64,000 nucleotides of DNA from Candidatus Parcubacteria bacterium (GCA_023128895.1 JAGMDC010000003.1:155651-219650), one strand, 5' to 3'. Counted from the first letter of the stretch, positions 39,572-58,079 are shown. Notes: generated from the letters alone by a model not told the origin. Numbers and translations are program-made.

Positions 39572-39578
39572 AATAATA

Positions 39579-40277: not shown

Positions 40278-40404
40278 ATTTCATATTTCGGATTTTTCCT
40301 TATTATACCAACAACCACAAATTTGTCAAGAGCAATGAGAACAAAGTTAAAATTGTGAATTATTGATTTTGACAAACATACGATAATTTGGGAAAATATA
40401 AGTA

Positions 40405-41268
40405 ATGGAAATTAAAAAAATCACAAAATTCCTATGGGGCGAGTTTATTTACGGAGGACATTTACTTTCTTTTGGAGCGTCAGGTATTCTTTGTTTTAGC
40501 GCGATAATTTTAAATCAAAAAATCTCAATCCCTCTTTTAATACTTGGCTATTTGATTTCTCAAATAACATATTTTTATAATCATTTCAAAGAACTTAAAA
40601 AAGATTTTTTAACAAACTTTCAAAGAACACAACATATTCAAAAATCTAAAAAATATTTTTTAATTATTTTTGGTTTTTATTGGGGTTTCTTTTTTTTGTG
40701 TTTAATTTATATCAATAATTTAGCAGTCATACTCCTGTCTTTGTTTATAATATCCGGCGGACTTCTATACACAATTTTTTTAAAAAACTTATCTAAAAAA
40801 ATAATTGAATTTAAAAGTTTTTATGTTTCTTTTTTTTGGGCGTTATCAATAATATTAATAGGATTTTATTATAATGTTTCTTTTAGTTTGCTTTTATCTC
40901 TGCTTTTCTCTTTTGTATTTTTAAGATGGTTAATGAACACAATTTTTTTCAACATCAAAGACATCGAATCCGATAAAAAAGAAAATTTAAAAACCTTAGC
41001 GATACTATTCGGAAAGCACAAAACCATAGATTGTCTTCATATAATTAATATTTTTTCTTTTGTTCCTATTATTATAGGCGTTTATACAAATTTACTGCCA
41101 TTGTTTTCTTTATTTATTCTAATTTTTTATTTTTATAGTTTTTATTATTTAGAAAAAGCTAAAAAAGAAAAAACACAAATTCATAATTTATCTTATATAA
41201 TGGTAGATGGAGAATATTTACTTTGGCCATTTATTCTGCTTTTAGGTAAAATCATCATTAATTTATGA
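40405..41268 (+). CDS. UbiA-family prenyltransferase-like membrane protein
   Basis: About 8 TM helices. The second Asp-rich motif is NIKDIESDKKENLKTLAILFG. The first motif is degenerate (YNHFKELKKD). Confidence 0.5.
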   Translation: MEIKKITKFLWGEFIYGGHLLSFGASGILCFSAIILNQKISIPLLILGYLISQITYFYNHFKELKKDFLTNFQRTQHIQKSKKYFLIIFGFYWGFFFLCLIYINNLAVILLSLFIISGGLLYTIFLKNLSKKIIEFKSFYVSFFWALSIILIGFYYNVSFSLLLSLLFSFVFLRWLMNTIFFNIKDIESDKKENLKTLAILFGKHKTIDCLHIINIFSFVPIIIGVYTNLLPLFSLFILIFYFYSFYYLEKAKKEKTQIHNLSYIMVDGEYLLWPFILLLGKIIINL

Positions 41269-42848: not shown

Positions 42849-43867
42849 TGGTTTCAGAAAATAATTTCAATAAAATTCTAAAAAACACAACAAAAAAAAT
42901 TGACCCTATCGTCAAAAAGATTTTGAGTTTGGACACTAGCAAACGAACAAAAAAAATTACTAATTATCAAATTTTAACCGGAGGTAAAAGAATAAGGCCA
43001 TTCTTAACAATTTTATGCTATAAGTTAGTTGGTGGAAATACAAAAGATGTTTTATACCCAGCGGCTGGCTTAGAAATCCTGCATAATTATACCTTGATTA
43101 TAGACGATCTGATTGATAAATCTGAAACCAGAAGAGAAAGACCAAGTGTTTGGTCTAAATTTGGCTCGGCAACCGCTAACTGCATTGCTGTCAATTATGC
43201 CTCATCTATTTTCCAGGCAAGCGCTAAATCAAAATATTCTATTCAAATCTCAAAAATATTTGCACAAACAATGAAAACCCTTACAGAAGGAGAAATTTTA
43301 GATACTTTATTAGAAAGAGGAGATAGAAAGCAAGAGCCATATATAATTGAAAATATGTATTCAGAAATTCAAAAAAAAGATTATTTTGAAATGGCTGGTA
43401 AAAAAACAGCAAGTTTGTTCCAAACCTGCTGTGAAGTGGGCGGCATCTGCGCTAACGCAAAGCCAAAAGCCCTAAACGCGTTAAAAAATTTTGGCTTTAA
43501 TTTAGGAATTGCTTTTCAAATCAAAGATGATATTTTAGATATCTTTGGAGAAGAGCCAGACAAAAAAATCGGCAATGACATCAAAGAAAGAAAGGGCGGA
43601 AACATTGTTATTATTTTTGCTTTGCAAAAACTTTCAAAAAATGACAAGCAAAAATTATTAAAAATAATGAAAAAGAAAAAAATTCTAAGCAAAGATATTA
43701 AAGATGCAATGAAATTAATTGAAAAAACAAACGCTGAAGAAAAAGCTGAACAATTAGGTAAAAAATACATTGACAACGCAAAAAAATCTCTGAAAACTTT
43801 ACCCCAGAATATACATAATGAAATTCTTGCTTTTACTGCTGACTTTATAATGGCGAGAAAAGAATAA
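42848..43867 (+). CDS. polyprenyl (geranylgeranyl-type) diphosphate synthase
   Basis: FARM LIIDDLIDKSETRR and SARM FQIKDDILD. TAATG overlap with the kinase gene. Confidence 0.8.
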   Translation: MVSENNFNKILKNTTKKIDPIVKKILSLDTSKRTKKITNYQILTGGKRIRPFLTILCYKLVGGNTKDVLYPAAGLEILHNYTLIIDDLIDKSETRRERPSVWSKFGSATANCIAVNYASSIFQASAKSKYSIQISKIFAQTMKTLTEGEILDTLLERGDRKQEPYIIENMYSEIQKKDYFEMAGKKTASLFQTCCEVGGICANAKPKALNALKNFGFNLGIAFQIKDDILDIFGEEPDKKIGNDIKERKGGNIVIIFALQKLSKNDKQKLLKIMKKKKILSKDIKDAMKLIEKTNAEEKAEQLGKKYIDNAKKSLKTLPQNIHNEILAFTADFIMARKE

Positions 43868-43914
43868 AGAAAAATCGGAAGTAATGAAAAATCGGAAGTT
43901 CAACTTCCGATTTT

Positions 43915-44766
43915 TCATTCTTCCAATAAAATTTTTGCTTGTTTAATCAATACCTCTAAATCGTTTAGAGGTATTTTAAATTTTTTAGAAAATTTTTGCG
44001 GGTTAATCTTTAAAACATCTTGAGCGAGCATCATTTTTTGGGAGACAAACGCGTCTTTAATACGGCTTTTTAACGATGGAAGAATTGTAATGGGATAAAA
44101 TTTTTGCTTTTCAATTATGTACTCTAAACTATTGTTTCTGGGCTCTTTCCATCCTAAAAGCTCCATACCAACACATCGGGAATATCGCCTCGCTTTTGCG
44201 GTAAATTTTGTATTTGTAGCTATTATAGTTTTTTTAACGCAATTCTCATATTTTTTAGACCTTAAAAACGCGCCGTTTGATATATCCAAAAAACGAGCAT
44301 AATTCGCAAGCGCGTCTTTTGAGTGAACTCTATCTCCAGCAAGATTCCTGTATTTGCACTCCCCTACATATATGATATTTTCTTTTTGCGCCAAAAAATC
44401 TATTTCATATTTAGAAGCGCATTTACCCGGCAAAAACTGATTTATTTTTACGTCAAACCCTGATTTTTTGAATATCTCCGCAATATATTTTTCAAAAGGA
44501 AAACCTGTTGGACCAAGTTTTTTTATCGCTTGTTTTAATGAAAATTTTAAAGCAGATTTGGAATTCTTTTTTGCCAGCAATTTTCTCACCTGACGATAGA
44601 TATCAGATGTTTTCATTCCAGAAAATACATCTCTTTCAATAATTTGAGCGATTTCTTTTGCCAAATTTCTATTAGCGCCAGCGTTTTGCGCAGACCTATA
44701 CACTTTTTGAAAAGAAAACATTTCCTTTTCTCCTCTTGAATTGATAATGTAAATATTGCTCGCCAT
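43915..44766 (-). CDS. ATP-cone domain fused to a PD-(D/E)xK restriction-endonuclease-like domain
   Basis: Start re-called at the ATG at 44766. ATP-cone-like N-terminus NIYIINSRGEKEMFSFQKVYRSAQNAG. Nuclease core YEIDFLAQKENIIYVGECKY. Confidence 0.6.
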   Translation of the reverse strand: MASNIYIINSRGEKEMFSFQKVYRSAQNAGANRNLAKEIAQIIERDVFSGMKTSDIYRQVRKLLAKKNSKSALKFSLKQAIKKLGPTGFPFEKYIAEIFKKSGFDVKINQFLPGKCASKYEIDFLAQKENIIYVGECKYRNLAGDRVHSKDALANYARFLDISNGAFLRSKKYENCVKKTIIATNTKFTAKARRYSRCVGMELLGWKEPRNNSLEYIIEKQKFYPITILPSLKSRIKDAFVSQKMMLAQDVLKINPQKFSKKFKIPLNDLEVLIKQAKILLEE

Positions 44767-44773
44767 AATACTA

Positions 44774-45841
44774 TTATACACTGCTTTTAATTTCAATAAC
44801 ATCGCCGTCTTGGACAATATAATCCTTACCCTCTATGCGGATTAGTCCTTTTTCCCGTGCCGATGCAAACCCGCCGGCATCGATTAAATCCTGCCAGTTA
44901 ATCACTTCCGCTTTGATAAAATATTTTTCAAAATCGCTGTGAATAACGCCGCCGGCTGCGGGCGCTTTTTCCCCTTTTTCAAGAGTCCAAGCCCGGGTCT
45001 CGTCAGAACCGGTGGTAAAAAACGTTATCAAATTAAGCAGTTTGTAGGATTCTTTGATTAAATCGTCTATTTTCAATTCTAATGGCAGACCAAAATCCTT
45101 TCTTTCCTCTGGCTCAATCTCCCCTGCTTCAAATTCAGTAAGAACATCAATAATTAAAAACTGCCAATTATTTTTTTTGAAAACCTCAATCACATCCGCG
45201 GAAATTTCATTTTCAGAACCATTTAATAAATACAAAACCGGCTTTGAAGTTAATAATTGATATTTATTTAAAATTTTTCTTTCTTCATTATCCCAGAGTT
45301 CTGTATTCAATGCCCTTCCATCTTGTAAAATATTTCTAGCTTTTTCTAATATTTTTAATTCTTGAACTGCCTGCCTGTCCCCTGCCCTTACTTCTTTTTC
45401 CATTCCTTCAATTCTTTTTTCTACTACTTCTAAATCCTTCAAACACATTTCCGTGTCTAAAATTTCTTTGTCTCTTACAATATCAATTTTAGATTCTATA
45501 TTTACAATTTTTTCATTCTTGAAACAGCGAAGAACATAAATCACAGCGTCAACTTCTCTTATATTAGCTAAAAATTTATTGCCTAATCCTTCGCCTTTAT
45601 TGGCTCCTTTAACTAAGCCGGCGATGTCAACAAATTCCACCGCTGCGTAGATTTTTTTTGCTGAATTTGTTAATTCCGCGAGTTTGTCCGCTCTTTTATC
45701 CACGACAGCAACAACTCCGACATTGGGGTCAATAGTGCAAAAAGGATAATTAGAGCGCTCAACTTGTTTTTTAGTTATTGCCTGGAATAAAGTTGACTTG
45801 CCGACATTTGGCAAACCAACAATTCCAATAGATAAAGCCAT
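44774..45841 (-). CDS. ychF: ribosome-binding ATPase YchF
   Basis: IGIVGLPNVGKSTLFQAIT P-loop, DIAGLVKGA, and a C-terminal TGS-like domain. Confidence 0.95.
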   Translation of the reverse strand: MALSIGIVGLPNVGKSTLFQAITKKQVERSNYPFCTIDPNVGVVAVVDKRADKLAELTNSAKKIYAAVEFVDIAGLVKGANKGEGLGNKFLANIREVDAVIYVLRCFKNEKIVNIESKIDIVRDKEILDTEMCLKDLEVVEKRIEGMEKEVRAGDRQAVQELKILEKARNILQDGRALNTELWDNEERKILNKYQLLTSKPVLYLLNGSENEISADVIEVFKKNNWQFLIIDVLTEFEAGEIEPEERKDFGLPLELKIDDLIKESYKLLNLITFFTTGSDETRAWTLEKGEKAPAAGGVIHSDFEKYFIKAEVINWQDLIDAGGFASAREKGLIRIEGKDYIVQDGDVIEIKSSV

Positions 45842-45897
45842 ATTTTAAATTTACCGCAATTTGCCGATTTTGTAAAATTTTTTAGAAAATCAAAAAC

Positions 45898-45926
45898 TTG
45901 ACTTTTTGAATAAAATGGTTTATTAT
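45898..45926 (+). promoter_or_regulatory. candidate promoter of winged-helix gene 1
   Basis: TTGACT-N17-TATTAT, with a TATAAT 3 nt further on, followed by AGGGGGTGA. The whole of 45891-45964 is duplicated at 51711-51785. Confidence 0.5.
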
Positions 45927-45963
45927 AATTATAATTAAAAAAACAATAGGGGGTGAATGAAAA

Positions 45964-46227
45964 ATGGAAAAAAGATGCGAAAAGGAAATTATTTTTGATA
46001 TGCTAAAAGCGCTAAGGGAGACAGAAGAGATGGCAAAAACAACACTTATGCGCTCGGCGAACTCGAACTGGGGAAGCTGCAAAAAAAAATTTGAATTGCT
46101 CCTTGAAAAAGGTCTTATCGCGCCAACGGCAAACAAAAAAAATTCCAGAGAAGTAAAATTCAGTATCACCGTCAAGGGTAAAACATTTATCGGTGATTTC
46201 CAGAAAATACAAAAATCTTTAGCGTAG
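45964..46227 (+). CDS. small winged-helix DNA-binding-like protein 1
   Basis: 87 aa, IIFDMLKALRE...AKTTLMRSANSNWGSCKKKFELLLEKGLI...FSITVKGKTFIGDF. Paralog of the 51832-52062 product. Confidence 0.6.
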   Translation: MEKRCEKEIIFDMLKALRETEEMAKTTLMRSANSNWGSCKKKFELLLEKGLIAPTANKKNSREVKFSITVKGKTFIGDFQKIQKSLA

Positions 46228-46278
46228 CGCGTTAGAGGGGAGGCATCTGTCTCTCTTATTTTTTTTGCGCTGTTACTG

Positions 46279-49200
46279 TTATTTTTCCTCGCAGACATCT
46301 ATTCTGTTGTCCTGTCCGTACTTCTCTCCAACGTCAAACGCGCAATAGCCGGTATAACAGTCATCATTGCTGTCGCAGTCGCCTTCTCCGGCATAACATT
46401 TACAATTAGTAGTGCAGTAATTCCATCCCCATAAAGAAGAGGTATGGCAGGTTTCGTCTTTGCCGTTCCCGTCTATGCCCGACTTATCAAAACCTTTCTC
46501 ATATGTCTTGTCACGAGCAGAAGTCTGGCTTTTGTTTTCTAAAATCTGTTCCCCTTGTTCAAGCAAATACCTGGTCCTCTCAAACAGTTCTTTAAGTGTA
46601 TTGTTTATTCTTTCATCCACTTGTCTGGTTCCTGGTCGGCGGGGCTGGTCTGGTTGGCTCGGTTGACTTGGTAACTCTCGGCCTCGGCTTGGTTGGTCTG
46701 GTTGAGTCGGTTGGGTCGGTGACTCTCGGCTTGATTCTTCTTGGCCGATCTTTTTCCATCCCGCGCCTATTCTAACGCCATCTTCGTCGTAAATAAACCA
46801 ACACGTTTCTTTCTCCCCGTCGCCGTCTATATCTATTTTATCATTATTAGAAATCTTATAAAATTTTCCGTTATACGCGCAGTCTGTATACTTTGGAGCG
46901 CATATTCCGTGCGAAACATACGGATCAAAAAGACAATAAGGCCAGCAACAATTCCAATTTTCAAATAATTCTGAACATTTCTCTCCTATTAATGAACAAT
47001 TTTTGTCAGTCAATCCAAATGTTATTTTTGTTACATTTGATTTATCAGCTTTGTTTCCAATATCATCTTTACAAGCAAGATATACTCTCTTGAATCCCAC
47101 TGGACCAATATCTGGAAAAGTACAGGTATGGGAGGTTGTACCCTCCCCCTTTTGACAATCAAGCGTCATTTCGTCATAACCTTGTTTGGTTAAAGAAATT
47201 CTGCACCAAGTTTTTTTCTGAGTAGTGGCAACAATATCCGGAGTATAATTATGGATAAATCTATCATAGTCATAACCAAGAGACCAATAATGTGCCTCAT
47301 CTGGAAAGACCAAAATCCTGTTAGCTTCTTTGCCGTCTACGCTAATTGTATGGATAATAGGAGGCATTTTATCTCCACCAGGGACTATTGAACTGCCTTG
47401 CCAAGAACCGTCAGCCAAACAAGTTTCGTCAACACCGTCATTATCCACATCTTTCTTATCTCCAACACTGTAATAAGAACAAGAAATATCTCCGCTATTA
47501 TACTTAAACTCTAATAATGCTTTATGAGACGAGTTGCAGCAGCAATCCACAGAATATTTATCTTCAAATATAATAGCAATTGTCGCGTCCTGATTAAATA
47601 GATAATAATTGAAAAGTTCAATTAATGTTGCTTTTGGAATTGTAAATGTTTTAGAACTAAAATTCTCACAATAATCTATTGAACCGCCGAAATTGCCTAT
47701 TTCGCCTAATTTTATTTCGCCATATCCCTTGGCAACAGCAATCTTGCAAAATTCTTTTGAATATGAACTTGAATCGCTATCATTGGTTTTCTTTCCGTCA
47801 TAATCGCCCTTGACGAAAACTGTTAATTTAGCGTCTGATGTTGGAAAACAGTCATTCCCTGTACAGGTAAATGTGAGATAATTAGCGCAGCCCCCTATCG
47901 ACGGCACTGCCCAAAACCCAGATTCTGGACAATCTTTTTGCTGAGTTTGAGAATATGCGGCTTGCTTATTTTGACAATAAACACAGCTTTTGCCTGCTGG
48001 AGCGCACGATTTCTTTGATGTTCCTGAATCAAAAACGCAATTGTTATTAGAGCAACAATCTGCATCTTTCCAACATTCCTCCCCGTCCTTGGAACAAAAA
48101 TCACTATGCTTCATTTTCAGCGCTTCATGCGCGTTCACAATCCCGGCGCCGGATATAGTTGTTGAACCAACATTCGCGGATACATCAAAAGTCGTTTGAA
48201 TATTGGTATTTTCACTCTTGCCTGCTTCAACGCTCGTTCTTGTAAGATTGGTTTTTCTATAAATATCATCAGTGTTCCCATAAAAAGATTCTCGCGAATT
48301 TGCAGCGCCTCTTTCTATATTTTGTACATTTAATCTATCTATTTGTTCTTTTATCTCTGTTAATCTGTCGCTTATCCTGTCTAATATTTCCCTTTTATAT
48401 CTATCGTATTCTCCGGGCTGGATAGAACGATCCCTGCTCGGCTGACCCGGCTGTCTTGGCTGCATCGGCTGTCCTGGACGACCCGGCTGTCTTGGCTGCA
48501 TCGGCTGTCCTGGACGACCCGGCTGGGCAGGTTCACTCGGCTGGGTTGGTTGGGTCGGTTGGTCTGGCTGGTCTTTTTCCTCGCAGACATCCATTCTGCT
48601 GTCCTGACCATATTTTTCTCCGACATCAAACGCGCAATAGCCGGTATGGCAATCGTCATTACTGTCGCAGTCGCCTTCGCCGGCATAACATTTGCAATTA
48701 GTAGTACAATAATTCCATTCCCATAAAGGAGAAGTATGGCAGGTTTCTTCTTCTGGCTCTGGCTGGGTAGGCTGACTTGGTCGGCCCGGTAACCCTGGTT
48801 CGCTCGGCTGACGCGGCTGACCCGGCTGTCTTGAACTTTCTTTTTTAACAACCTCAAAACGTCCATCCCAAGTAGTAGCTGTTTGATTTCCTTTTACTAA
48901 TTTTAAGTTCCAACTTCCTAATGGAGCGCTTAAAGAAAGAGTATAATTATATGTGCCGCCTTGTGAAGTTATCATTTGGAAAAAGTTGACATAATTCCCG
49001 TTTGAGTCAACAATTCTTAACGACCATCCTATATAAGAATTGTTTGGCTCCACAATTATTTCAACGGTTTCTCCCTGCTCATAAGTTGTTTCAGACACCC
49101 TTACTTTAGAAGATGGCCACGCGGGTTGGCCCGGCTGGCTTGGTTGGCCCGGCTGGCTTGGTTGGCCCGGCTGGCTTGGTTGGCCCGGCTGGCTTGGTTG

Positions 49201-50829
49201 GCCCGGCTGGCTTGGTTGTCCCGGCTGGCTTGGCTGTCCCGGCTGGCTTGGCTGGCTTGGTTGGCCCGGCTTGGAAATTACTTTAGGATGATAAGCTGTT
49301 TCCTTTAGAATTTGCCTTACCTTTTCATTTGAAATTCCAGGATTTTGCGAAAGAATTAAAGCCGCAACTCCAGACACCATTGGCGCTGACATACTTGTTC
49401 CGCTTGCTATATAATATTTTCCCCCAATTATGCTGATTCCATCTCCGTACATATCTGTGCCTCTAGCGCGCAAAGAAAGAATTACGGCTCCCGGCGCTGA
49501 AATATCAACCAAGCGCCCATAATTAGACCATTTTGCCTGCTTGTTCAACGGCGTAGTTGCCGCAACACTGATAGTGGTTAAATGACTACCTGGAAACGTA
49601 AATCTTCCATCGCTGCTATCATTTCCAGCAGAAGCGACTAACACGCATCCTTTTTTGTGAGCGTAATTCAATATCTCTTCAAGCGCAGCAGGCGCTTTTG
49701 CGACAATTCCGCCCCAGCTCATATTTATCACATCAGCGCCGTTATCAACAGCGTACATAATTGATTCTATCATATCGGTTCCATCGGCAGAGCCATCTTT
49801 ATCAAAAAATTTCAGCGACATTATTTTAGAATACCAGGAAATACCAGCCACTCCTTTACTGTTGTTTGTGGAAGCGGCTATTATGCCGGCGCAATGAGTC
49901 CCGTGCCCAAAATCATCAGCAGGGCTCTTATCATCATACGCAAAATCCCACCCATTAACATCGTCAATATATCCGTTATTGTCATCGTCTATTCCATTGC
50001 CGGCAATCTCGCCAGAGTTTATCCAAATATTGCTTTTCAAATCTGTGTGAGACATATCCACTCCTGTATCAATAACTGCCACAACAACATCTTTGCTTCC
50101 TTTTTGTATATCCCAGGCATCGCCTGCTTTAATTACATGTAAACCCCACTGATCTTTATACCATTGTTTCCAAGCGCCTGTTGTGGAATAATATGTATCA
50201 TCTGGAGTTGTTGTATGAACAGACACAACAAAATTTGTTTCCACATATTCTACGTTTTCAGATTTTCCATATTTCTCAATAATATCTGAACTTAAAACGC
50301 TTAAATCAAAACTAACGCGATACAAATTTGAAAACAAAGGCGACTTTGATACTCTTGATATCTTTAATGGCTTCTCCCTTGTCAAAGATATAATATCCTG
50401 ATTTATCCTGCTGCTGGTAACCCCTGTTTTGACTTTTACCAATACCTCGCTAAAAGTATGCGATGGTATTATTCTTTCGCTCTTAAAAATCTCATTCATT
50501 TTTGCCCTTGTGGTAGTACCTACAAACCCTGTTCCCCTTGTCAACTTCCAGGGATCTAAAATTTCTTCTTGATGTTCTTCCTGAAAACGAACTACTGCCT
50601 CGCGAGTCTGTTCGTCAAACCTGCCAGTTGCCTCCACTTCTGGATAAGTTTCTCTTAAATATTCCTGCATAAACTTCACATCGTCTCCGGTTCTATTTAG
50701 AGATAAATTTCTGTCCAAATCCACGCTTCGCATTGCTGCGCGCGCTTCGCGCGCGCCGATTCCCTCACACAAAGAAAACGCGAAAATAACAGCGAGCGCA
50801 AAAATACAAAACTTAATATTTATTTTCAT
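46279..50829 (-). CDS. giant secreted subtilisin-like (S8) protease 1 with PG-binding-like domain, Pro-rich linkers and Cys-rich modules
   Basis: Signal peptide, then LSLNRTGDDVKFMQEYL...GRFDEQTREAVVRFQ. Catalytic residues VAVIDTGVD, HGTHCAGIIAA and SGTSMSAPMVSG. (QPGQPS)n linkers. Two copies of CHTS.LW.WNYCTTNCKCYAGEGDCDSNDDC.TGYC. Confidence 0.85.
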   Translation of the reverse strand: MKINIKFCIFALAVIFAFSLCEGIGAREARAAMRSVDLDRNLSLNRTGDDVKFMQEYLRETYPEVEATGRFDEQTREAVVRFQEEHQEEILDPWKLTRGTGFVGTTTRAKMNEIFKSERIIPSHTFSEVLVKVKTGVTSSRINQDIISLTREKPLKISRVSKSPLFSNLYRVSFDLSVLSSDIIEKYGKSENVEYVETNFVVSVHTTTPDDTYYSTTGAWKQWYKDQWGLHVIKAGDAWDIQKGSKDVVVAVIDTGVDMSHTDLKSNIWINSGEIAGNGIDDDNNGYIDDVNGWDFAYDDKSPADDFGHGTHCAGIIAASTNNSKGVAGISWYSKIMSLKFFDKDGSADGTDMIESIMYAVDNGADVINMSWGGIVAKAPAALEEILNYAHKKGCVLVASAGNDSSDGRFTFPGSHLTTISVAATTPLNKQAKWSNYGRLVDISAPGAVILSLRARGTDMYGDGISIIGGKYYIASGTSMSAPMVSGVAALILSQNPGISNEKVRQILKETAYHPKVISKPGQPSQPSQPGQPSQPGQPSQPGQPSQPGQPSQPGQPSQPGQPSQPGQPAWPSSKVRVSETTYEQGETVEIIVEPNNSYIGWSLRIVDSNGNYVNFFQMITSQGGTYNYTLSLSAPLGSWNLKLVKGNQTATTWDGRFEVVKKESSRQPGQPRQPSEPGLPGRPSQPTQPEPEEETCHTSPLWEWNYCTTNCKCYAGEGDCDSNDDCHTGYCAFDVGEKYGQDSRMDVCEEKDQPDQPTQPTQPSEPAQPGRPGQPMQPRQPGRPGQPMQPRQPGQPSRDRSIQPGEYDRYKREILDRISDRLTEIKEQIDRLNVQNIERGAANSRESFYGNTDDIYRKTNLTRTSVEAGKSENTNIQTTFDVSANVGSTTISGAGIVNAHEALKMKHSDFCSKDGEECWKDADCCSNNNCVFDSGTSKKSCAPAGKSCVYCQNKQAAYSQTQQKDCPESGFWAVPSIGGCANYLTFTCTGNDCFPTSDAKLTVFVKGDYDGKKTNDSDSSSYSKEFCKIAVAKGYGEIKLGEIGNFGGSIDYCENFSSKTFTIPKATLIELFNYYLFNQDATIAIIFEDKYSVDCCCNSSHKALLEFKYNSGDISCSYYSVGDKKDVDNDGVDETCLADGSWQGSSIVPGGDKMPPIIHTISVDGKEANRILVFPDEAHYWSLGYDYDRFIHNYTPDIVATTQKKTWCRISLTKQGYDEMTLDCQKGEGTTSHTCTFPDIGPVGFKRVYLACKDDIGNKADKSNVTKITFGLTDKNCSLIGEKCSELFENWNCCWPYCLFDPYVSHGICAPKYTDCAYNGKFYKISNNDKIDIDGDGEKETCWFIYDEDGVRIGAGWKKIGQEESSRESPTQPTQPDQPSRGRELPSQPSQPDQPRRPGTRQVDERINNTLKELFERTRYLLEQGEQILENKSQTSARDKTYEKGFDKSGIDGNGKDETCHTSSLWGWNYCTTNCKCYAGEGDCDSNDDCYTGYCAFDVGEKYGQDNRIDVCEEK
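49124..49272. repeat. tandem 18-nt repeat (about 8 units) encoding (PGQPSQ)n in protease 1
   Basis: GGTTGGCCCGGCTGGCTT is iterated with minor variants. A further 36-nt x2 repeat lies at 48444-48527. Confidence 0.9.
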
Positions 50830-51026
50830 AATAGCAAATAAATTTATTATTTTAATTTTTTGACCTTTGTCAAATTATACCACAAACCAACAAATAAAAA
50901 AAAGAGGGATTAGCACCTCCTTATTTTATATTTGCCGCAATTTGCCAATTTTGTAAAATTTTTTGAAAAATTTGAAGTAAAATAAATCCCCATTGCCTAC
51001 AACAGGGAAAATTTTATTACTATTTA

Positions 51027-51545
51027 CTAAGGAGTTATTGTCCAACTAATTTCTTGGTTCTCATAGAGCGCCCTTGTTGAAAAATTCCACGAGCGCGAAC
51101 TGTTTTCTCCAAAAAATTTGGATTGTGTGTTTAATGTCGGCGATTCTATACCAGCGTTAAAGAGAAAAGAGTCCGCTACTAAGTGTTCAACATTTATGCC
51201 CAGTGCCGCAGAACGAAGCGATGCTGTATATCTAGCGTATTGTGCTAATTCTATCTTTTTTGATTGATTAGCGGTCAACTTATGTTTGAATGTCAGGTCT
51301 GTTTTTTTTGGTTCTTTCTCAAAACTCAATACAGCAGAAGTATTTATAGCCCTGCCGCTGATACCCTGCGCGCTAATTTTGCCGTGAACGAAAACTGTGT
51401 CTGATGAATAAAAGGTGTATGCGTATTTTACACCCTTTGTCTGCGTCGTCTCTTCATAATATAGCGCTTCCGCTTGCGGCGCAATCAATATAAATATTCC
51501 TATCGCCAGGAACAGTAATACGACTATTACCACTTTTTTATCCAT
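51027..51545 (-). CDS. small secreted protein of unknown function
   Basis: Signal or anchor VVIVVLLFLAIGIFILIAPQAEA. Strong SD AAGGAGGAC 8 nt upstream. No recognisable motif. Confidence 0.6.
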   Translation of the reverse strand: MDKKVVIVVLLFLAIGIFILIAPQAEALYYEETTQTKGVKYAYTFYSSDTVFVHGKISAQGISGRAINTSAVLSFEKEPKKTDLTFKHKLTANQSKKIELAQYARYTASLRSAALGINVEHLVADSFLFNAGIESPTLNTQSKFFGENSSRSWNFSTRALYENQEISWTITP

Positions 51546-51717
51546 TTGCTTTTTGTCCTCCTTTTTTTATTATTTCTACACTGTTTAATAATTACAAATA
51601 ATTTCATAATCGTTAAACAGCGTAGAAACAAAGCAATTATCTATATTAAAAATTTAAAGTACTTTATAATAATACTAAAAATTAATAATATTGTCAAGTC
51701 AGATAATCAAAAAAAAC

Positions 51718-51746
51718 TTGACTTTTTGAATGAAATGGTTTATTAT
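51718..51746 (+). promoter_or_regulatory. candidate promoter of winged-helix gene 2
   Basis: Same TTGACT-N17-TATTAT as at 45898-45926. Confidence 0.5.
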
Positions 51747-51831
51747 AATTATAATTAAAAAAACAATAGGGGGTGAATGAAAAACGAAAAGAAAAACGAA
51801 AAAGAGGGGCGACTATGAGATTTTTTTTGAT

Positions 51832-52062
51832 ATGCTGGATGCGCTACTAAAGAAGAAAAAGAAGAAAGAACCGATGGCAAAAACAGCATTAATGCACGCG
51901 ACAAATTTGGACTGGAGAAACTTCAAAGAAAGGTTTGAATTTCTCCAAGAAAAAGAACTTATTGCGGAGACAAACGAGGAAAACGCTAAAAGATACAATA
52001 TCACTGATAAGGGTCTGGGGTATATCATAGAATTCAAAAGGCTCCGGAAAATTTTAGCGTAG
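51832..52062 (+). CDS. small winged-helix DNA-binding-like protein 2
   Basis: MLDALLKKKKKKEPMAKTALMHATNLDWRNFKERFEFLQEKELI...YNITDKGLGYIIEF. The homologous frame continues upstream (GDYEIFFD) but has no ATG there. Confidence 0.55.
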   Translation: MLDALLKKKKKKEPMAKTALMHATNLDWRNFKERFEFLQEKELIAETNEENAKRYNITDKGLGYIIEFKRLRKILA

Positions 52063-52124
52063 CGCGTTTAGTAAAAGGTTAAGGGGAGGCATCTGTCTCT
52101 CTTATTTTTTTTGCGCTGTTACTG

Positions 52125-55100
52125 TTATTTTTCCTCGCAGACATCTATTCTGCTGTCCTGTGTATATTTCTCTCCAACGTCAAACGCGCAATAGCCGGTA
52201 TGACAGTCATCATTGCTGTCGCAGTCGCCTTCGCCTGCGTAGCATTTACAATTAGTAGTGCAATAATTCCATCCCCATAAAGAAGAAGTATGGCAGGTTT
52301 CGTCTTTGTTGTTCCCGTCTATGCCCGACTCATCAAAACCTTTGTCATATATCCCGTCACGAGCAGAAGTTTGTCTTCTCTCATTTAAAATCTGTTCCCC
52401 TTGTTCAAGCAAATACCTGGTCCTCTCAAACAGTTCTTTAAATGTATTGTTTATTCTTTCATCCACTTGTCTGGTTCCTGTTCTGCCGCCCGGGATCTCG
52501 CCAGAGGGCTGTCTGGGCTGGGTAGGTTGAGTCGGAAACCTTGATCGGCCCGGTTGTTCTGGTTGGTCTGGCTGAGCAGGTTGGGTCGGTTGGGTAGGTT
52601 GGGTCGGAAACCTTGGTCTGCCCGGTTGTTCTGGTTGGTCTGGTTGGTCTGGTCTGCCCGGTTGTTCTGGTTGGTCTGGTTGGTCTGGTTGGTCTGGTTG
52701 GTCTGGTCTGCCCGGTTGTTCTGGTTGGTCTGGTTGGTCTGGTTGGTCTGGTACTCGCGGTTGCATTGGCTGCCTCGGCTGGGATGTACCAAAATCTATC
52801 CATTCTCCATTAGGAGTACATGTCTCTTTTCTGCCGTCTCCATCTATATCCAATTTATCAAAATTATTATAATAAGAACCTTTAAAAACGCAACTTTTAT
52901 CTATGGGAATGCATACTTTCTTTGAAAAAAATAGATCAAGCACACACTTCGTAGAACAGCAATAATAAGTTCCTGGGCATTCTTCTCCTTCAGATAAACA
53001 ATTTCCTTCGATCAAATAAAATCCTACTGACGGAGTACTAAGTTCACTTGGCTTATTGCCAAATTGGTCTTTACAAGCAAAATACAAAATCTTTGGGCCC
53101 AAAGAACCAACATCAGGGATAGCGCAAGTATGAGAGGTTGTACCCTCCCCCTTCTGGCAATTAATCGTCATCGCGTCGTAACCCTGTTTTGTTAGAGATA
53201 TCCTGCACCAGGCATTTTCATCTGTATTAAAAACTAAATCCGGAGTGCTATCGTTAACACCAGCCGCAACACAAAAATAATAAATATAATCATTAGTGAG
53301 CGCTCTCACGCCGCCAACAGATAACATATAAGCGAGAGGGAACAAAGTAGGCGGAGAAAGAGGATTTTTTCTTGGTATATGAGAATTACCCTCCCATGAA
53401 CCATCAGATAAACAAGTTTCATCAATACCGTCATCGTCTACATCTTTCTTGGCGCCAGCATTGTGATAAGAACAAGAACTGCCTATGCTATACGTGAACT
53501 CTAATCTTGCTTTATGCGCGGCATTACAGCAGCAATCCACGCCGCCGGAAGGAAAAGGAGCGAAGTTGACAGTAATAGTCCCATCTTTGGCAAAACTATC
53601 ATAATTAAAATAATCAATCATATCTGACTGAGAAATTATAAATGATTCAGAGCCATAAGTTTCGCAATAATTTATTGTTGAACTCTTATCATTTTTTTTG
53701 AACTTGCCGAGTTTTCCTACTCTACTTTTTATAAGGGATCTCTTAATATAAATTTCGCAATATTCCAACATGGAAATACGGTCGGTTGAATCTGTTTTTA
53801 CGCCGTCATAATCGCCTTTAATCCAAGCGGTTAATTTAGCGTCTGAAATCGGATGACATTCTCCATCATTGCAGGTGAATAGAAAATTAGTGTTACAATT
53901 TATTTCTTGGCACTTTTCTTCTTGCGTCTTAGAATAGTACGCCTTCTTTATCTTGCAAAACACGCAACTCTTATCAGCAGGGATGCATATTTTTAGAGAT
54001 GTTCTCGAGTCAAAAACGCAATTATTAGAACAACAATCTGAATCATCCCAACATTGTTTGCTATCATTAAAACAAGGCAAAGGCAACAGGGCCTGATATG
54101 CATTGACAATTCCAGCACCAGGTATTTTATCAGATCCTAACCCAGCATCACCAGGTAATCTAAACATCTTATCATTACTATCAATAAAAATATCTTGTTC
54201 GCTTTCATCGCTGATTAATGTCCTTGTTAAATTAGTGCCTTTGTTATATGTCCCGCTGCGAGCAGAAATCTGTCTTCTCTCATTCAAAATTTGTTCCCCT
54301 TGTTCAAGCAAATATCTGGTCCGCTCAAACAGTTCTTTAAGTGTATTGCTCAGTTCTTCATCCACTTGCCTGGTTCCTGTTCTGCCGCGGGGGACCTCGC
54401 CAGATGGCTGTCTGGGCTGGGTAGGTTGAGTCGGAAACCTTGGGCGGCTCGGCTGGTCTGGCTGGTCTGGCTCTCGCGGTTGTGGTTGTGTCGGCTGGTC
54501 TGGCTGCTGCCCTGTAGAGGATACAATACTGAAATAGTTGTTGCTTCTGTCAAAACCTGAACCGACTACTTCAATGAAAATTTTGTATTTGGTTCCTAAA
54601 TTTTGACCTGCCGGAACTTTCCATGAATAACTGCCTGAAGAAAATCTATATGTAAGAAGCTTATTATCACCGCAAGGTTTGTCAGGAGAACAATTTGGAT
54701 TGTTTGAATGGTCTTCTAAATAAACAAATACTTCTGTTCTGACTGCAGAATTGATGCTCCATTTAATATTATATGTTTGCTCCTTCTGCCATTGCTCTCC
54801 TCCATTAGGAGAAGTGATTGTTAATCCTGATTCCTTCGGCTGTTCTGGCTGCTTTGGTTGTTCTGGTTGGCCAGGTCTGCCTGGTAAGCTTGGCTGTTCT
54901 GGCTGTTCTGGTTCTGGTTGTTCTGGTTCTGGTTGTTTTGGTTGTTCTGGTTGGCCTGGTCGGCCCGGTTGTTCTGGTTGTTCTGGTTCTCGCGGTTGTG
55001 GTTGTGTCGGCTGCTCTGGCTGTGTCGGCTCGTCGGGTCTCTGTTCTGGCTGTTCTGGCTGTTCTGGCTGTTCTGGCAAATACGCTGTTTCTTTTAAAAT

Positions 55101-56588
55101 ATATCTTACTTTTTCATTGGCTATTCCAGGGTTATGGGAAATTATTAAAGCGGCAACTCCAGAAACAAAAGGCGCAGACATACTGGTCCCGCTCGCTACA
55201 TAATATTTTTCACCTATTATATGATGTCCATCTCTATACATATCCGTACCATCTGCGCGCAAAGAAAGAATATTCCTTCCAGGAGCAGAAACATCCACGA
55301 GTCTACCATAATTAGAAAATGTAGCTTTTACATTTTGACAAGTTGTAGCGCCAACGCCAATAGTTGTTGGCTGGTTTACGGGAAACACCAGTTTTGCATC
55401 AACATTGCTATTCCCGGCAGAAGCGACCAGAACACATCCTCTTTTATGGGCGTATCTCAAAATATCGTTTATCGCCATATTTCCTTTACGTCCCCATCCT
55501 CCCCAGCTCATACTAATTACATCAGCCCCATTATCTGCTGCATATCTTATTCCTTCAACAAGATCATCTAGCTTCCCGTTTCCATTATTAAAAAGTGATT
55601 TCACAGGCATTATTTTAGAATGCCAGGAAACACCTGCCACTCCTTTACCGTTATTTGTAACAGCGGCTATAATGCCGGCGCAGTGAGTCCCATGCCCAAA
55701 CCTATCGGTCGGGCTATTATCATCATAAGCAAAATCCCATCCCTGCACATCGTCTATGTATCCGTTGTTATCGTCATCTATGCCATTTCCGGCAATTTCG
55801 CCAGGGTTCTTCCAGATATTATCGGATAAATCAATGTGAGAAAAATCTACGCCTGTATCCACAACTGCCACAACAACATTCGCTCTTCCTTTTTCTATGT
55901 CCCATGCCTCACCAGCTTTAATCGCGTACAAACCACACTGATATTTAGGATTATAATATGTATCATCTGGCACAGTTGTAAAAGTAGATACAATAGAATT
56001 AACATCTACATATTCTATACGCGAAGAAACTTTGTATTTTTCAATAATCTCAGAGGTCAAAACATCCTCTGAAAAAGTTATCCGATACAAATTTGAAAAA
56101 TCTGGCGACTTGGAAATTCTTTTTATCGCGCGAGGTTTTTCACCTGTCAAAGATATTATATCCTGCTCTATCTGTTTTGTATCAATACCTGGCTTAATTT
56201 TTATTAAAACCTCTCCAAAAGTATGTTTTGGCACAATTCTTTCGGATTCAAAAATCTCATTCATTTCTGCCCTTGTGGTAGTGCCTACAAACCCTGTTCC
56301 TCTTGTTAACTTCCAGGGATCTAAAATCTCTTTTTGATGTTCTTCCTGAAAACGAACTACTGCCTCGCGAGTTTGTTCGTCAAAACGGCCTGTGGCCTCC
56401 ACTTCTGGATAAGTTTCTCTTAAATACTCCTGCATAAACTTTACATCATCTCCTGTCCTGTCTAGAGATAAATTCCTGTCCAAATCCCAACGACTATTGG
56501 CTTGGGCATCTACGGCTCCTATAAAAAAAATTGCCAGAGCGCAAAAACTTAATCCGACAATTTCTAAAATATGTAATTTAAAATTCAT
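52125..56588 (-). CDS. giant secreted subtilisin-like (S8) protease 2 (paralog of protease 1)
   Basis: Same N-terminal PG-binding-like region. Catalytic residues VAVVDTGVD, HGTHCAGIIAA and SGTSMSAPFVSG. (PEQ/PDQ)n linkers. Identical type of C-terminal Cys-rich module. Confidence 0.85.
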   Translation of the reverse strand: MNFKLHILEIVGLSFCALAIFFIGAVDAQANSRWDLDRNLSLDRTGDDVKFMQEYLRETYPEVEATGRFDEQTREAVVRFQEEHQKEILDPWKLTRGTGFVGTTTRAEMNEIFESERIVPKHTFGEVLIKIKPGIDTKQIEQDIISLTGEKPRAIKRISKSPDFSNLYRITFSEDVLTSEIIEKYKVSSRIEYVDVNSIVSTFTTVPDDTYYNPKYQCGLYAIKAGEAWDIEKGRANVVVAVVDTGVDFSHIDLSDNIWKNPGEIAGNGIDDDNNGYIDDVQGWDFAYDDNSPTDRFGHGTHCAGIIAAVTNNGKGVAGVSWHSKIMPVKSLFNNGNGKLDDLVEGIRYAADNGADVISMSWGGWGRKGNMAINDILRYAHKRGCVLVASAGNSNVDAKLVFPVNQPTTIGVGATTCQNVKATFSNYGRLVDVSAPGRNILSLRADGTDMYRDGHHIIGEKYYVASGTSMSAPFVSGVAALIISHNPGIANEKVRYILKETAYLPEQPEQPEQPEQRPDEPTQPEQPTQPQPREPEQPEQPGRPGQPEQPKQPEPEQPEPEQPEQPSLPGRPGQPEQPKQPEQPKESGLTITSPNGGEQWQKEQTYNIKWSINSAVRTEVFVYLEDHSNNPNCSPDKPCGDNKLLTYRFSSGSYSWKVPAGQNLGTKYKIFIEVVGSGFDRSNNYFSIVSSTGQQPDQPTQPQPREPDQPDQPSRPRFPTQPTQPRQPSGEVPRGRTGTRQVDEELSNTLKELFERTRYLLEQGEQILNERRQISARSGTYNKGTNLTRTLISDESEQDIFIDSNDKMFRLPGDAGLGSDKIPGAGIVNAYQALLPLPCFNDSKQCWDDSDCCSNNCVFDSRTSLKICIPADKSCVFCKIKKAYYSKTQEEKCQEINCNTNFLFTCNDGECHPISDAKLTAWIKGDYDGVKTDSTDRISMLEYCEIYIKRSLIKSRVGKLGKFKKNDKSSTINYCETYGSESFIISQSDMIDYFNYDSFAKDGTITVNFAPFPSGGVDCCCNAAHKARLEFTYSIGSSCSYHNAGAKKDVDDDGIDETCLSDGSWEGNSHIPRKNPLSPPTLFPLAYMLSVGGVRALTNDYIYYFCVAAGVNDSTPDLVFNTDENAWCRISLTKQGYDAMTINCQKGEGTTSHTCAIPDVGSLGPKILYFACKDQFGNKPSELSTPSVGFYLIEGNCLSEGEECPGTYYCCSTKCVLDLFFSKKVCIPIDKSCVFKGSYYNNFDKLDIDGDGRKETCTPNGEWIDFGTSQPRQPMQPRVPDQPDQPDQPEQPGRPDQPDQPDQPDQPEQPGRPDQPDQPEQPGRPRFPTQPTQPTQPAQPDQPEQPGRSRFPTQPTQPRQPSGEIPGGRTGTRQVDERINNTFKELFERTRYLLEQGEQILNERRQTSARDGIYDKGFDESGIDGNNKDETCHTSSLWGWNYCTTNCKCYAGEGDCDSNDDCHTGYCAFDVGEKYTQDSRIDVCEEK
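52490..52790. repeat. tandem 9/18-nt repeats encoding (QPD/QPE/QPT)n in protease 2
   Basis: GGTTGGTCT units are interspersed with GGTCTGCCCGGTTGTTCT. A second tract lies at 54838-55078. Confidence 0.85.
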
Positions 56589-56713
56589 AGTAATGTGAAA
56601 ATAAATAATAAATGATAAATGATACGACTTTCATTATATTATTTTATCACGCTTAATATCCGCAAACAAGCCAAGTTATCCACACTCGCAAGCAATCTCC
56701 CTCGCCTAATATT

Positions 56714-57160
56714 CTAAAAAACAAACTTATCTCCTATTTCAAGGCCAATCCTGTCCGTTGTGCCGGCGTTTAATTCCAAAACATATTTTGCCTTTCTGCC
56801 CGGCTTCATCTTTTTACACACGCCATCGCCGCAGGGCTGGGCATCTCTTTCAATAAAAACCACTTCCCTATCCTGATTGATGTAAATAATATCCAGAGCA
56901 ATCAAAGTATTTTTCATCCAGAAAGAATGTTCTCCTTCCTGCTCAAAAATAAAAAGCATTCCTTTGTCAGCATCCATTTTCTCGCGAAACATCAAACCGC
57001 GATATCTTTGCTCCTGCGTTTCTGCCAATTCCACAATAAAACAATTGTCCTGAAAACAAACCTTTTTCTCTTTTAAATTGTCCCGCGCCGCGTTTAACAT
57101 AATAAAAATAAATAATATAATCGCTGACAACAGCAATATTAAAAATATAATCTTTCTCAT
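56714..57160 (-). CDS. DUF192 domain protein
   Basis: RGLMFREKMDADKGMLFIF...FWMKNTLIALDIIYIN...VLELNAG is the DUF192 signature. Confidence 0.75.
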   Translation of the reverse strand: MRKIIFLILLLSAIILFIFIMLNAARDNLKEKKVCFQDNCFIVELAETQEQRYRGLMFREKMDADKGMLFIFEQEGEHSFWMKNTLIALDIIYINQDREVVFIERDAQPCGDGVCKKMKPGRKAKYVLELNAGTTDRIGLEIGDKFVF

Positions 57161-57287
57161 TATTAAATTCTAATCCCTTTCTCTTGTTTTTACAAATTTT
57201 TTGCCAAATCAAATAAAAAAAAATCCGCCGAAATTTGAATTTCACAATTCAATTTCAAACGGCTATTTTGTTTTTTATAATATCCAT

Positions 57288-58079
57288 CTATATCTTCCAC
57301 TGATTTGTCAATTCAGACACTATCTTATAGATATCTTTTACCTCTTCCATGTCTGCGCCCTCTCTGTATCTTTGTTTGCTTAACTGCCGTCCGTCTTTAT
57401 CCTTGATTCGGAAACTGTCAGGGTCAATCACATCAGCTAAAATAATTTCTTGTTTGTGCTTTCCAAGGTTGTGCCTTTGCCTTCCAAACTCTATCTTGAG
57501 GTCCCAAAGAATTACTCCTAACTCTTTCAATGCCTGTTCAAGAACTAGAAAAATCCTCTTTGCTTGGCGTTCAATGTAGTCCGCTTCTTCCCACGAAAAA
57601 TGGCAGCCAATTGTTCCAATAAAGCTCAAATCACTTATTGGTTCGTGAGCTCCATAGAGATACCACTCATCAGGATCTATCTCAACAATTTCTATAATCG
57701 GGTCATTTAGTTCGTCGTCTTTATAGAAAAATTCCGTTACCAGGGGGTCAAACATGGTGCCGTCTTTGATTTCTGGATTTCGCTCAAGATAACTGCCGGT
57801 AGCAAACCGCCTGATTACTACCTCATCGGGTATCATATCGCATTCTAAAGCGTAAAAACCTGTTTCTCCTGCTCGTCTGATAAAATGTGTCCTTATATTG
57901 TGCTGATTAAGTAATCCAAAAATATTCGCTGTGATGTTGTTCACCCATTTGTCTTTGCCTTGCATTGGATCTTTCTTCTTCCCGTCTCCTTTCGTGATAA
58001 TTGGCTTGTTGACAATCTTCACTATTCCCGGTTTAACTCGCCAAATTACTTTTGTTTTTCCTTCACCTATTTTTTTCAT
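57288..58079 (-). CDS. purC: phosphoribosylaminoimidazole-succinocarboxamide (SAICAR) synthase
   Basis: Start re-called at the ATG at 58079, 9 nt after GGAGGTG. GEGKTKVIW...NNITANIFGLL...IPDEVVIRRFATGSYLER is the PurC fold signature. Confidence 0.75.
   Translation of the reverse strand: MKKIGEGKTKVIWRVKPGIVKIVNKPIITKGDGKKKDPMQGKDKWVNNITANIFGLLNQHNIRTHFIRRAGETGFYALECDMIPDEVVIRRFATGSYLERNPEIKDGTMFDPLVTEFFYKDDELNDPIIEIVEIDPDEWYLYGAHEPISDLSFIGTIGCHFSWEEADYIERQAKRIFLVLEQALKELGVILWDLKIEFGRQRHNLGKHKQEIILADVIDPDSFRIKDKDGRQLSKQRYREGADMEEVKDIYKIVSELTNQWKI

Follow-up and report, generated by a model that had tools for sequence, protein, structure and literature searches.

A tandemly duplicated unit of a giant modular subtilase and a small winged-helix gene in a Candidatus Parcubacteria genome, with probable gene conversion between the copies

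Results

We analyzed a 64,000-nt stretch of DNA (the window) from a Candidatus Parcubacteria bacterium, a member of the candidate phyla radiation (CPR). Two units of about 5.8 kb each in this window consist of a plus-strand gene for a small winged helix-turn-helix (wHTH) protein and a minus-strand gene for a secreted S8 subtilase of about 1500 aa. We consider it likely that the units arose by tandem duplication of modular surface proteases together with a passenger wHTH gene, that gene conversion homogenized the ends of the copies, and that the link between the wHTH and the protease is positional only. According to this reading, a lineage-specific tandem segmental duplication would have copied the ~5.8 kb unit in the Candidatus Parcubacteria genome, and each copy would comprise an Sso10a/HTH_45 gene, with its own sigma-70-like promoter, Shine-Dalgarno (SD) sequence, and terminator, and a giant Sec-secreted modular subtilase. 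Non-reciprocal recombination would then keep the wHTH promoter and leader, the terminator and spacer, and the C-terminal coil and 8-Cys module near-identical; the PG_binding_1 module would be homogenized too, less completely. Module cassettes would probably be duplicated and shuffled by way of the Pro/Gln linker repeats. Both proteins are predicted to work as active proteases outside the cell or on its surface, and their immunoglobulin (Ig)-like and Cys-rich modules may bind targets.

Organization of the duplicated units

In unit 1, wHTH1 (45964-46227, plus strand) encodes an 87-aa HTH_45/Sso10a-like winged-helix DNA-binding protein and faces protease 1 (46279-50829, minus strand, 1516 aa). 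In unit 2, wHTH2 (51832-52062, plus strand, HTH_45) encodes 76 aa from the first ATG of a frame that is open from 51781, and faces protease 2 (52125-56588, minus strand, 1487 aa), a collinear paralog of protease 1. The wHTH1 promoter and leader (45892-45963, plus strand) contain a -35 element TTGACT (45898-45903), a -10 element TATTAT (45921-45926), a palindrome TTATAATTATAA (45923-45934, plus strand), and an SD sequence GGGGGTG (about 45949-45955, plus strand). The promoter and leader of wHTH2 (51712-51784, plus strand) are a copy of 45892-45964 with 1 mismatch over 73 nt, and a 39-nt core of this region occurred 2 times in the window against 0.00 times expected by chance. The spacers between the wHTH and protease genes were the same in both units except for an 11-nt indel and 2 neighboring bases, and a 36-nt core of the spacer also occurred 2 times in the window (0.00 expected by chance).

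Each spacer carries an intrinsic terminator of the wHTH gene (46236-46267 and 52082-52113, respectively, plus strand), in which a T8 tract follows a 9-bp stem that includes G-U pairs. The unit 1 terminator was 100% identical both to the unit 2 copy and to that of a second strain, L001. The hairpins on the wHTH strand had folding energies of -21.8 and -24.8 kcal/mol (z -3.4 and -4.1) and a U8 tract. Read on the protease strand, the same hairpin was weak (-8 kcal/mol), had no U tract, and did not qualify as a terminator of the proteases. An Rfam scan of 45000-57500 gave no match at E≤1, and no known RNA element was found in leader or spacer.

L001 is a gap-free Joint Genome Institute (JGI) contig from another sample. 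It was collinear with 43896-56169, both units included, with 96.9% identity over 12.3 kb. This independent collinearity through both units indicates that the duplication is real and not an artefact of assembly. Repeats that were mis-joined in metagenome assembly could also give two such units; 100-N scaffold gaps and contig ends in four further assemblies of the organism, from different samples, were confined to Pro-rich repeats, and the (PGQPSQ)n array may not have its true length (L003 13172-13614 aligned off-register). In addition to L001, however, the four assemblies agreed with the window at 99.8–100% identity wherever they had no scaffold gap, with the gap flanks in L002-L004 in the same order, and the paralogs differ at ~40% of aligned columns and so are not collapsed copies. 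We therefore regard mis-assembly as extremely improbable.

An ORF (open reading frame) listing and a repeat search recovered all the main elements of the duplicated layout that had been proposed from the sequence before this analysis (the original prediction). The shared promoter and leader, the near-identical spacer, and the two winged-helix ORFs of 76–87 aa were all confirmed.

Probable gene conversion between the protease paralogs

A Nei-Gojobori scan, run codon by codon along the two proteases, showed the synonymous divergence (dS) in the S8 core and the centre to be saturated or greater than 1. Over the PG_binding_1 module (aa 40–112), dS was 0.23–0.74; the final three 40-column intervals (the last ~125 codons) gave 0.00, 0.09, and 0.44, with 0.00–0.09 over 65 codons at the 3′ ends. 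The 3′ ends were 92–100% identical (92% over the final 300 nt). At the 5′ ends, the first ~105 nt, which encode the signal peptides, were ~55% identical, and nt ~105–345 were 85–94% identical. Identical tracts between the units reached 71, 56, and 52 nt, and the maximum in 2000 shuffles of the alignment columns was 27 nt. In protease 1, the homogenized 3′ module (46282-46647, minus strand) comprises the end of a linker, a coiled coil, a DxDGxG-ETC motif, and the CHTS domain; the partly homogenized 5′ module (50479-50724, minus strand) is PG_binding_1 at aa ~36–117.

These data support gene conversion or cassette exchange as the cause of the mosaic of similar ends and diverged centre. Purifying selection alone on important protein modules, without recombination, is an alternative, and the homogenized parts do match discrete modules (PG_binding_1; the coil and CHTS). 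Selection at the protein level is insufficient, because synonymous sites and the non-coding spacer are also identical. The strongly conserved S8 core has a dS above 1, yet the 65 codons at the 3′ ends are nearly free of synonymous change; the spacer of the promoter is identical as well, and one haplotype is swapped between the paralogs. We give this alternative hardly any credence.

The swapped haplotype was found in a four-way comparison of two paralogs in two strains. Nearly all variable sites showed the orthology pattern, which was seen at hundreds of sites. The protease centres (~3.5 kb) were strictly orthologous between the strains, with 0 concerted and 0 swapped sites. At the protease 3′ end, there were few fixed differences between the paralogs and 2 concerted sites, and a 3-site haplotype (GTCTT versus ATCCC) had changed places: the version in the window's unit 1 was that of unit 2 in L001, and vice versa. 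The site patterns of conversion were therefore present, yet sparse (one swapped 3-site haplotype and 2 concerted sites). The dominance of the orthology pattern together with the swapped haplotype indicates that the homogenization is mostly older than the split of the strains and that at least one exchange occurred later.

The original prediction of a gene-conversion mosaic was thus supported by tracts beyond chance, a swapped haplotype, and cassettes of the 8-Cys domain and the coiled coil copied within and between genes. Uniform synonymous divergence along the genes, which it had named as an observation that would speak against the mosaic, was not found, the dS being low only at the ends. Its claim of near-identical ends was correct for the 3′ end and too broad for the first 330 nt at the 5′ end, where the signal-peptide part has diverged. 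The diverged centre is real, but is largely an insertion of 320–370 aa with differing contents that splits the S8 domain.

Frequent exchange of loci and cassettes by conversion and linker slippage, comparable to cassette-based antigenic variation, would constitute programmed surface variation. The allele swap between paralogs in two strains, the linker arrays that vary by strain and break assemblies, the cassette copies within genes, and the clustering of strain differences at 48196-48632 and 52104-52403 all fit such a program. The near-complete identity of the four other assemblies outside their gaps, although they come from different samples, and the strict orthology of the gene centres argue against it, and the window contains no silent cassette arrays, recombinase gene, or diversity-generating retroelement (DGR). 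Programmed variation is accordingly quite unlikely.

Origin of the duplication

The promoter region of ychF (45838-45890, minus strand; TTTACA-17-TAAATT) abuts the ychF ATG at 45841. A copy of this region lies upstream of protease 1 (50919-50971, minus strand; 89% identity over 53 nt), where the ychF ATG reads AAG. The original prediction had noted 35 nt of this copy, which is therefore longer than was claimed. The copy sits at the expected left junction of a tandem segment that starts at ~45838, and 50919-50971 is probably a relic of the left edge of the duplication. The promoter-like hexamers of ychF (45841-45876) stop a few bases short of the ATG, and ychF may be translated from a leaderless mRNA.

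The dS between the wHTH1 and wHTH2 coding regions was about 0.8. This value and the saturation of the protease centres indicate that the duplication is old. Between the ychF-promoter copy and the wHTH2 promoter lies a gene for a 172-aa protein (51027-51545, minus strand) with an N-terminal signal or anchor; as predicted, its SD sequence is strong (GGAGG). It has its own promoter (TTGACA-17-TATTAT, 51697-51669) and a terminator (51008-50987), and its product matched no family in NCBIfam, PHROGs, or Pfam. The gene may have entered unit 2 once the duplication had taken place, or unit 1 may have lost it.

Several observations weigh against an old tandem duplication followed by gene conversion. The strain comparison comprises one species and two strains (the window and L001), and the swap evidence for recent conversion is a single 3-site patch. 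The ychF-promoter copy is more similar to its source than expected for an old, unconstrained junction. Neither protease was present in the protein collections searched, and close relatives may likewise be hidden. Furthermore, the wHTH coding regions form a diverged island (43% aa identity) between near-identical flanks. Random conversion does not predict such an island, so that selection on the regulatory flanks, or against homogenization of the wHTH, must also act.

Architecture of the proteases

Both proteases matched PF00082 Peptidase_S8 with 205 and 213 bits, respectively (cut-off 21.8; E 1e-60), and PF01471 PG_binding_1 with 31.0 and 31.3 bits (cut-off 23) at aa 47–86 and 45–84. Signal peptides were read from the sequence at both N-termini. 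In an alignment with subtilisin BPN′ and the homolog P0037, the motifs VIDTGVD, GHGTHCAG, SAGN, and GTSMSAP followed in this order in both proteases, so that the catalytic Asp, His, and Ser motifs and the oxyanion Asn are all in place. The proteases therefore look secreted and catalytically competent. Residues 120–205 could be aligned with P0037 over its prodomain region, and PF22148 is present in homologs; no Pfam prodomain was hit at E≤0.1 in either protease. The PG_binding_1 module lies upstream of this presumed prodomain in both proteins. The PG_binding_1 family in Pfam also takes in the prodomains of matrix metalloproteinases, and “PG-binding” and “knottin” are best read here as domain labels, not functions.

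Protease 1 consists, in order, of the signal peptide, PG_binding_1, the prodomain-like region, S8 split by an insert, a Cys motif resembling an inhibitor cystine knot (ICK), a domain that we call domain X, a Big_13-like Ig domain, a second Cys motif, a linker, a coiled coil, and the 8-Cys CHTS domain. The final S8 element (GAGIVNAHEAL in protease 1 and GAGIVNAYQAL in protease 2, equivalent to GKGLINVQAAA) lies ~410 and ~350 aa past the Ser motif, respectively. Among the 120 best homologs, 77 S8 domains were motif-positive, and in 68 of these the gap was 37–57 aa. The position of the terminal GxGxVNA element far beyond the Ser motif indicates that the S8 domain is split by an insertion, and neither protease has a contiguous catalytic domain. 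The split is an architectural variant and no ground for excluding the proteins from the family.

The insert consists of linkers and whole domains and is located directly ahead of the terminal GxGxVNA element. In protease 1 (48160-49317, minus strand, aa ~505–890), it contains a (PGQPSQ)n linker, an MG2-like Ig domain, an internal CHTS cassette (48568-48752, minus strand), a linker, and a diverged coil. In protease 2 (54123-55082, minus strand, aa ~503–822), it contains Pro/Gln linkers, a Kre9_KNH-like Ig domain, and a second coil cassette, without CHTS. The coil cassette 54238-54472 was 88% identical to 52339-52573, both within protease 2, and the CHTS cassette copies shared 87–92% nucleotide identity. 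Searched in isolation, segments of the proteases gave only sub-threshold Pfam matches, to MG2, Kre9_KNH, Dickkopf_N, and conotoxin.

The Pro/Gln-rich linkers are encoded by 9- and 18-nt repeats, and their array lengths differ between the strains. Indels between the strains occurred only in linker repeats (46596-46695, 48396-48532, 49033-49205, 52604-52703, and 54804-54988), which fits slippage and recombination at those repeats. The proteases are probably missing from databases since assemblies break at linker repeats, and such giant genes may be systematically under-represented in protein collections. The homologs found covered only 18–34% of the protease. A word-indexed protein search with protease 1 returned S8-domain matches only and also missed the query's own sequence, so that the absence of full-length matches in it is weak evidence. 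No LPXTG or other recognized anchor was detected in the proteases, and a literature search found nothing specific on this architecture.

C-terminal Cys-rich and Ig-like modules

An exhaustive profile search of 1.84 billion representatives with the region after S8 gave 237 relatives. The Ig-like part recurs in giant surface proteins, with up to 30 copies per protein. Domain X (47425-47970, minus strand; protease 1 aa ~953–1135) is ~170 aa long and has a CCC motif. It also occurs in proteins that bear Peptidase_C25 or Peptidase_M64 and in one Peregrinibacteria protein; it looks like an accessory module common to extracellular peptidases of differing catalytic class. Domain X has the pattern TFTC..PTSDA.LT..KGDYD ... 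CCN.SHKA.LEF.Y, and P0140, P0149, and P0186 are among the proteins that contain the domain.

The CHTS domain has the 8-Cys pattern ..LWGWNYC..C.C..GDCDS...C..GYCA..VG..YGQ...DVCE. A relative with 56% identity (L012 8001-8162; L013 1614-5363) is located near the N-terminus of a 1249-aa PilY1-like/vWA protein, the gene of which follows minor-pilin-like genes in a high-G+C bacterium. Neither CHTS nor domain X had a match in Pfam or the PDB, and PDB sequence searches with CHTS, the C-terminal region, and wHTH1 gave nothing significant. No further copies of the wHTH, CHTS, or tail modules were found elsewhere in the window.

Residues 912–942 of protease 1 have the spacing C-x6-C-x5-CC-x4-C-x10-C, which fits the ICK pattern CX3-7CX3-6CX0-5CX1-4CX4-13C; the term “knottin-like” refers to this spacing alone. 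The Pfam matches of this segment were sub-threshold (Dickkopf_N, 17 bits; Conotoxin_I2, 14 bits). An AlphaFold2 model of protease 1 aa 900–1365 had low confidence, with a predicted local distance difference test (pLDDT) score of 54.6. The tail domains are mobile extracellular modules, consistent with target binding, and the predicted proteases would suit an episymbiotic CPR cell that scavenges nutrients or interacts with a host surface.

The small winged-helix proteins

The wHTH1 protein is identical to the NCBI protein KAW43_01820 of Candidatus Parcubacteria bacterium. Pfam HTH_45 matched wHTH1 and wHTH2 with 49.5 and 42.6 bits, respectively (cut-off 25.5), and the NCBIfam family Sso10a_fam with 41.4 and 39.9 bits, under its cut-off of 60. 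The AlphaFold2 model of wHTH1 (pLDDT 80.9) had the topology H-E-H-H-E-E-H, corresponding to a winged-helix fold plus a C-terminal helix. In the PDB, Foldseek ranked Sso10a-2 of Sulfolobus first (4hw0; E 3.9e-5, TM score 0.72, 26% identity); MarR-type domains and the centromere-binding protein AspA came next. One paper (PMC4941522) reports two views of Sso10a, a family of small archaeal DNA-binding proteins: that they are specific transcription factors and that they are architectural proteins.

No wHTH relative outside the species was found among 5.8 billion proteins, and relatives in a one-genome-per-species set were confined to ANME-1 and ANME-3 archaea, with 31–33% identity. This distribution hints at an archaeal ancestry of the Parcubacteria wHTH. 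The ANME-1 contigs (L009 1388-2386; L010 213-795) carry two or three small HTH_45 genes in tandem. A phage or mobile origin was considered and rejected, as there was no relative in IMG/VR and only a weak match to a PHROG “transcriptional regulator”.

Between the strains, the dS of wHTH1 was 0.15, compared with 0.037 for ychF, and its ratio of non-synonymous to synonymous divergence (dN/dS) was 0.36, which indicates purifying selection on wHTH1. The segment 45996-46095 had 12 mismatches per 100 nt between the strains, and its local surroundings were <1% different. The changes hit synonymous and non-synonymous sites and were mostly unique to L001, not derived from wHTH2. It looks as if wHTH1 is a functional gene with a diverged allele that was imported from an unsampled lineage by recombination.

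In regards to wHTH2, the ancestral start ATG is ACG in both strains (51784-51786), and this change accounts for its shorter product. The upstream part of its frame still codes for helix 1 (YEIFFDMLDALL). A candidate near-cognate start, ATT at 51820, lies 10 nt after GAGGGG, and a 13-codon ORF is now situated behind the conserved SD sequence of the wHTH2 leader. It is possible that wHTH2 uses a near-cognate start or is an N-terminally truncated protein.

Relation between the wHTH and protease genes

The original prediction had cast each wHTH as the dedicated regulator of the facing protease. We found no support for this linkage beyond position. The archaeal wHTH relatives (L009-L011) had no S8 neighbor, and the closest S8 relatives in other CPR genomes (P0004 and P0099) had no wHTH neighbor; the two genes thus did not co-occur outside the species. 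Lack of linkage in other genomes is an observation that the original prediction itself had named as speaking against it. The coverage of this comparison is thin, since the wHTH has no relatives outside the species except the distant archaeal ones.

No operator motif shared between the two kinds of gene was found. The palindrome TTATAATTATAA was found at the two wHTH promoters only and not upstream of the proteases. The region upstream of protease 1 (50830-50918, minus strand) has an extended -10 element TGgTATAAT (50882-50874) and a palindrome TTGACCTTTGTCAA (50860-50873, minus strand) that overlaps the start site predicted there, occurs nowhere else in the window, and is absent at protease 2. 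A terminator-like hairpin with a T run lies at 50922-50901. The segment 50901-50971 thus holds, in order, the copied ychF promoter, immediately followed by the terminator-like hairpin, and next the extended -10 promoter of protease 1. Judged by eye, the upstream regions of the two proteases appear unrelated.

Each wHTH is the sole plus-strand gene within a run of minus-strand genes. Its convergence with the protease follows from this position, as a lone plus-strand gene must converge with one neighbor and diverge from the other. The gene divergent from wHTH1 is ychF; for wHTH2 it is the 172-aa gene, which has a strong promoter at a distance of 20 nt. The divergent arrangement is the commoner one for a regulator and its target. 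Since the protease mRNA has no evident terminator, its transcription may continue in antisense across the wHTH gene and reach the next co-directional gene, and this possible read-through is the only hint of coupling.

These points bear on a regulator-target module, in which each wHTH would control the facing protease by binding its promoter or by interference between convergent transcripts across the spacer. The pairing is held in both units and both strains, the spacer with its terminator is fully conserved, antisense read-through is plausible, and TTGACCTTTGTCAA covers the predicted start site of protease 1. We nevertheless consider such a module unlikely, because the pairing lies inside a duplicated block and is not independent evidence, and because the missing co-occurrence, the protease upstream regions that look dissimilar by eye, the restriction of the two palindromes, and the divergent partners of the wHTH genes all speak against it. 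A more elaborate possibility is a bistable switch, in which an acquired Sso10a-like wHTH is coupled tail-to-tail to the protease by the fully conserved one-way terminator and antisense protease transcription, extending into the next gene, opposes wHTH repression of the locus. The two diverged wHTH copies would then choose the protease variant, and gene conversion would keep the parts of the switch interchangeable; we regard this as very unlikely. Most likely, the wHTH is an autoregulated DNA-binding protein of small size that came along as a passenger of the duplicated segment and is connected with the protease by position.

Neighboring genes

The G+C content of the window was 30–45%, and the genes lie mostly on the minus strand. 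Upstream of unit 1, the order of genes in the window is a 976-aa PKD/Big_9 protein, a sortase, UbiA, a histidine kinase, a polyprenyl synthase, an ATP-cone protein, and YchF. Beyond unit 2, a DUF192 gene follows protease 2. The 976-aa PKD/Big_9 surface protein (36641-40277) has internal repeats that are ~70–73% identical (37332-39163), and the sortase gene is directly adjacent to it. The region 40000-44000, which spans the plus-strand genes of UbiA, the histidine kinase, and the polyprenyl synthase, has a markedly lower G+C content of 25–33%.

Comparison with known systems

The locus illustrates how, in a reduced CPR genome, the few large surface proteins may evolve: by tandem duplication, by conversion of the terminal modules, which probably serve in anchoring or binding, and by shuffling of modules through linkers. 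Its uncommon features are a large nested insert that splits the S8 domain, an Sso10a-like gene of archaeal type in a bacterium, and two undescribed extracellular modules, one of 8-Cys type with a PilY1-like relative and the other (domain X) shared with C25 and M64 peptidases. It also presents an example of giant genes whose Pro-rich repeats break assemblies and which are hence missing from protein databases.

The proteases have the Asp, His, and Ser motifs in common with large secreted subtilases (MEROPS S8A, including the group with a fervidolysin-like prodomain, lactocepin, and C5a peptidase), and the nearest S8 homologs share the NGIDDDNNGYIDD calcium-loop region with them. Long C-terminal Ig-like tails are likewise common to multidomain subtilases and these proteases. 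In cell-envelope proteinases, a PA domain is inserted within the catalytic domain. Unlike the usual subtilases, the proteases described here have an insert with Pro/Gln linkers just before GxGxVNA and a PG_binding_1 module ahead of the prodomain. The wHTH is similar to the archaeal Sso10a/HTH_45 proteins (4hw0) in size and in its C-terminal helix, but its host is a CPR bacterium and its scores are below the Sso10a_fam cut-off.

DGRs that act on the C-termini of CPR surface proteins resemble this locus in the near-identical repeats of ~185–235 nt at the 3′ ends of surface-protein genes. A DGR was rejected as the source of these repeats: the window has no ORF for a YxDD reverse transcriptase, and the mismatches are mainly C/T transitions and not adenine-specific. 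There was also no sign of high-frequency switching at this locus.

Concerted evolution of paralogs by conversion is known from duplicated tuf genes and from bacterial surface-protein families. The present locus resembles these systems in its patchy near-identical tracts with low dS in diverged paralogs and in the exchanged haplotype. It differs from them in that the tracts are limited to the terminal modules and the regulatory flanks, and the wHTH between them stays diverged. Such a mosaic is what concerted evolution ordinarily yields in tandem paralogs; the locus has some unusual architecture and is not a new kind of system.

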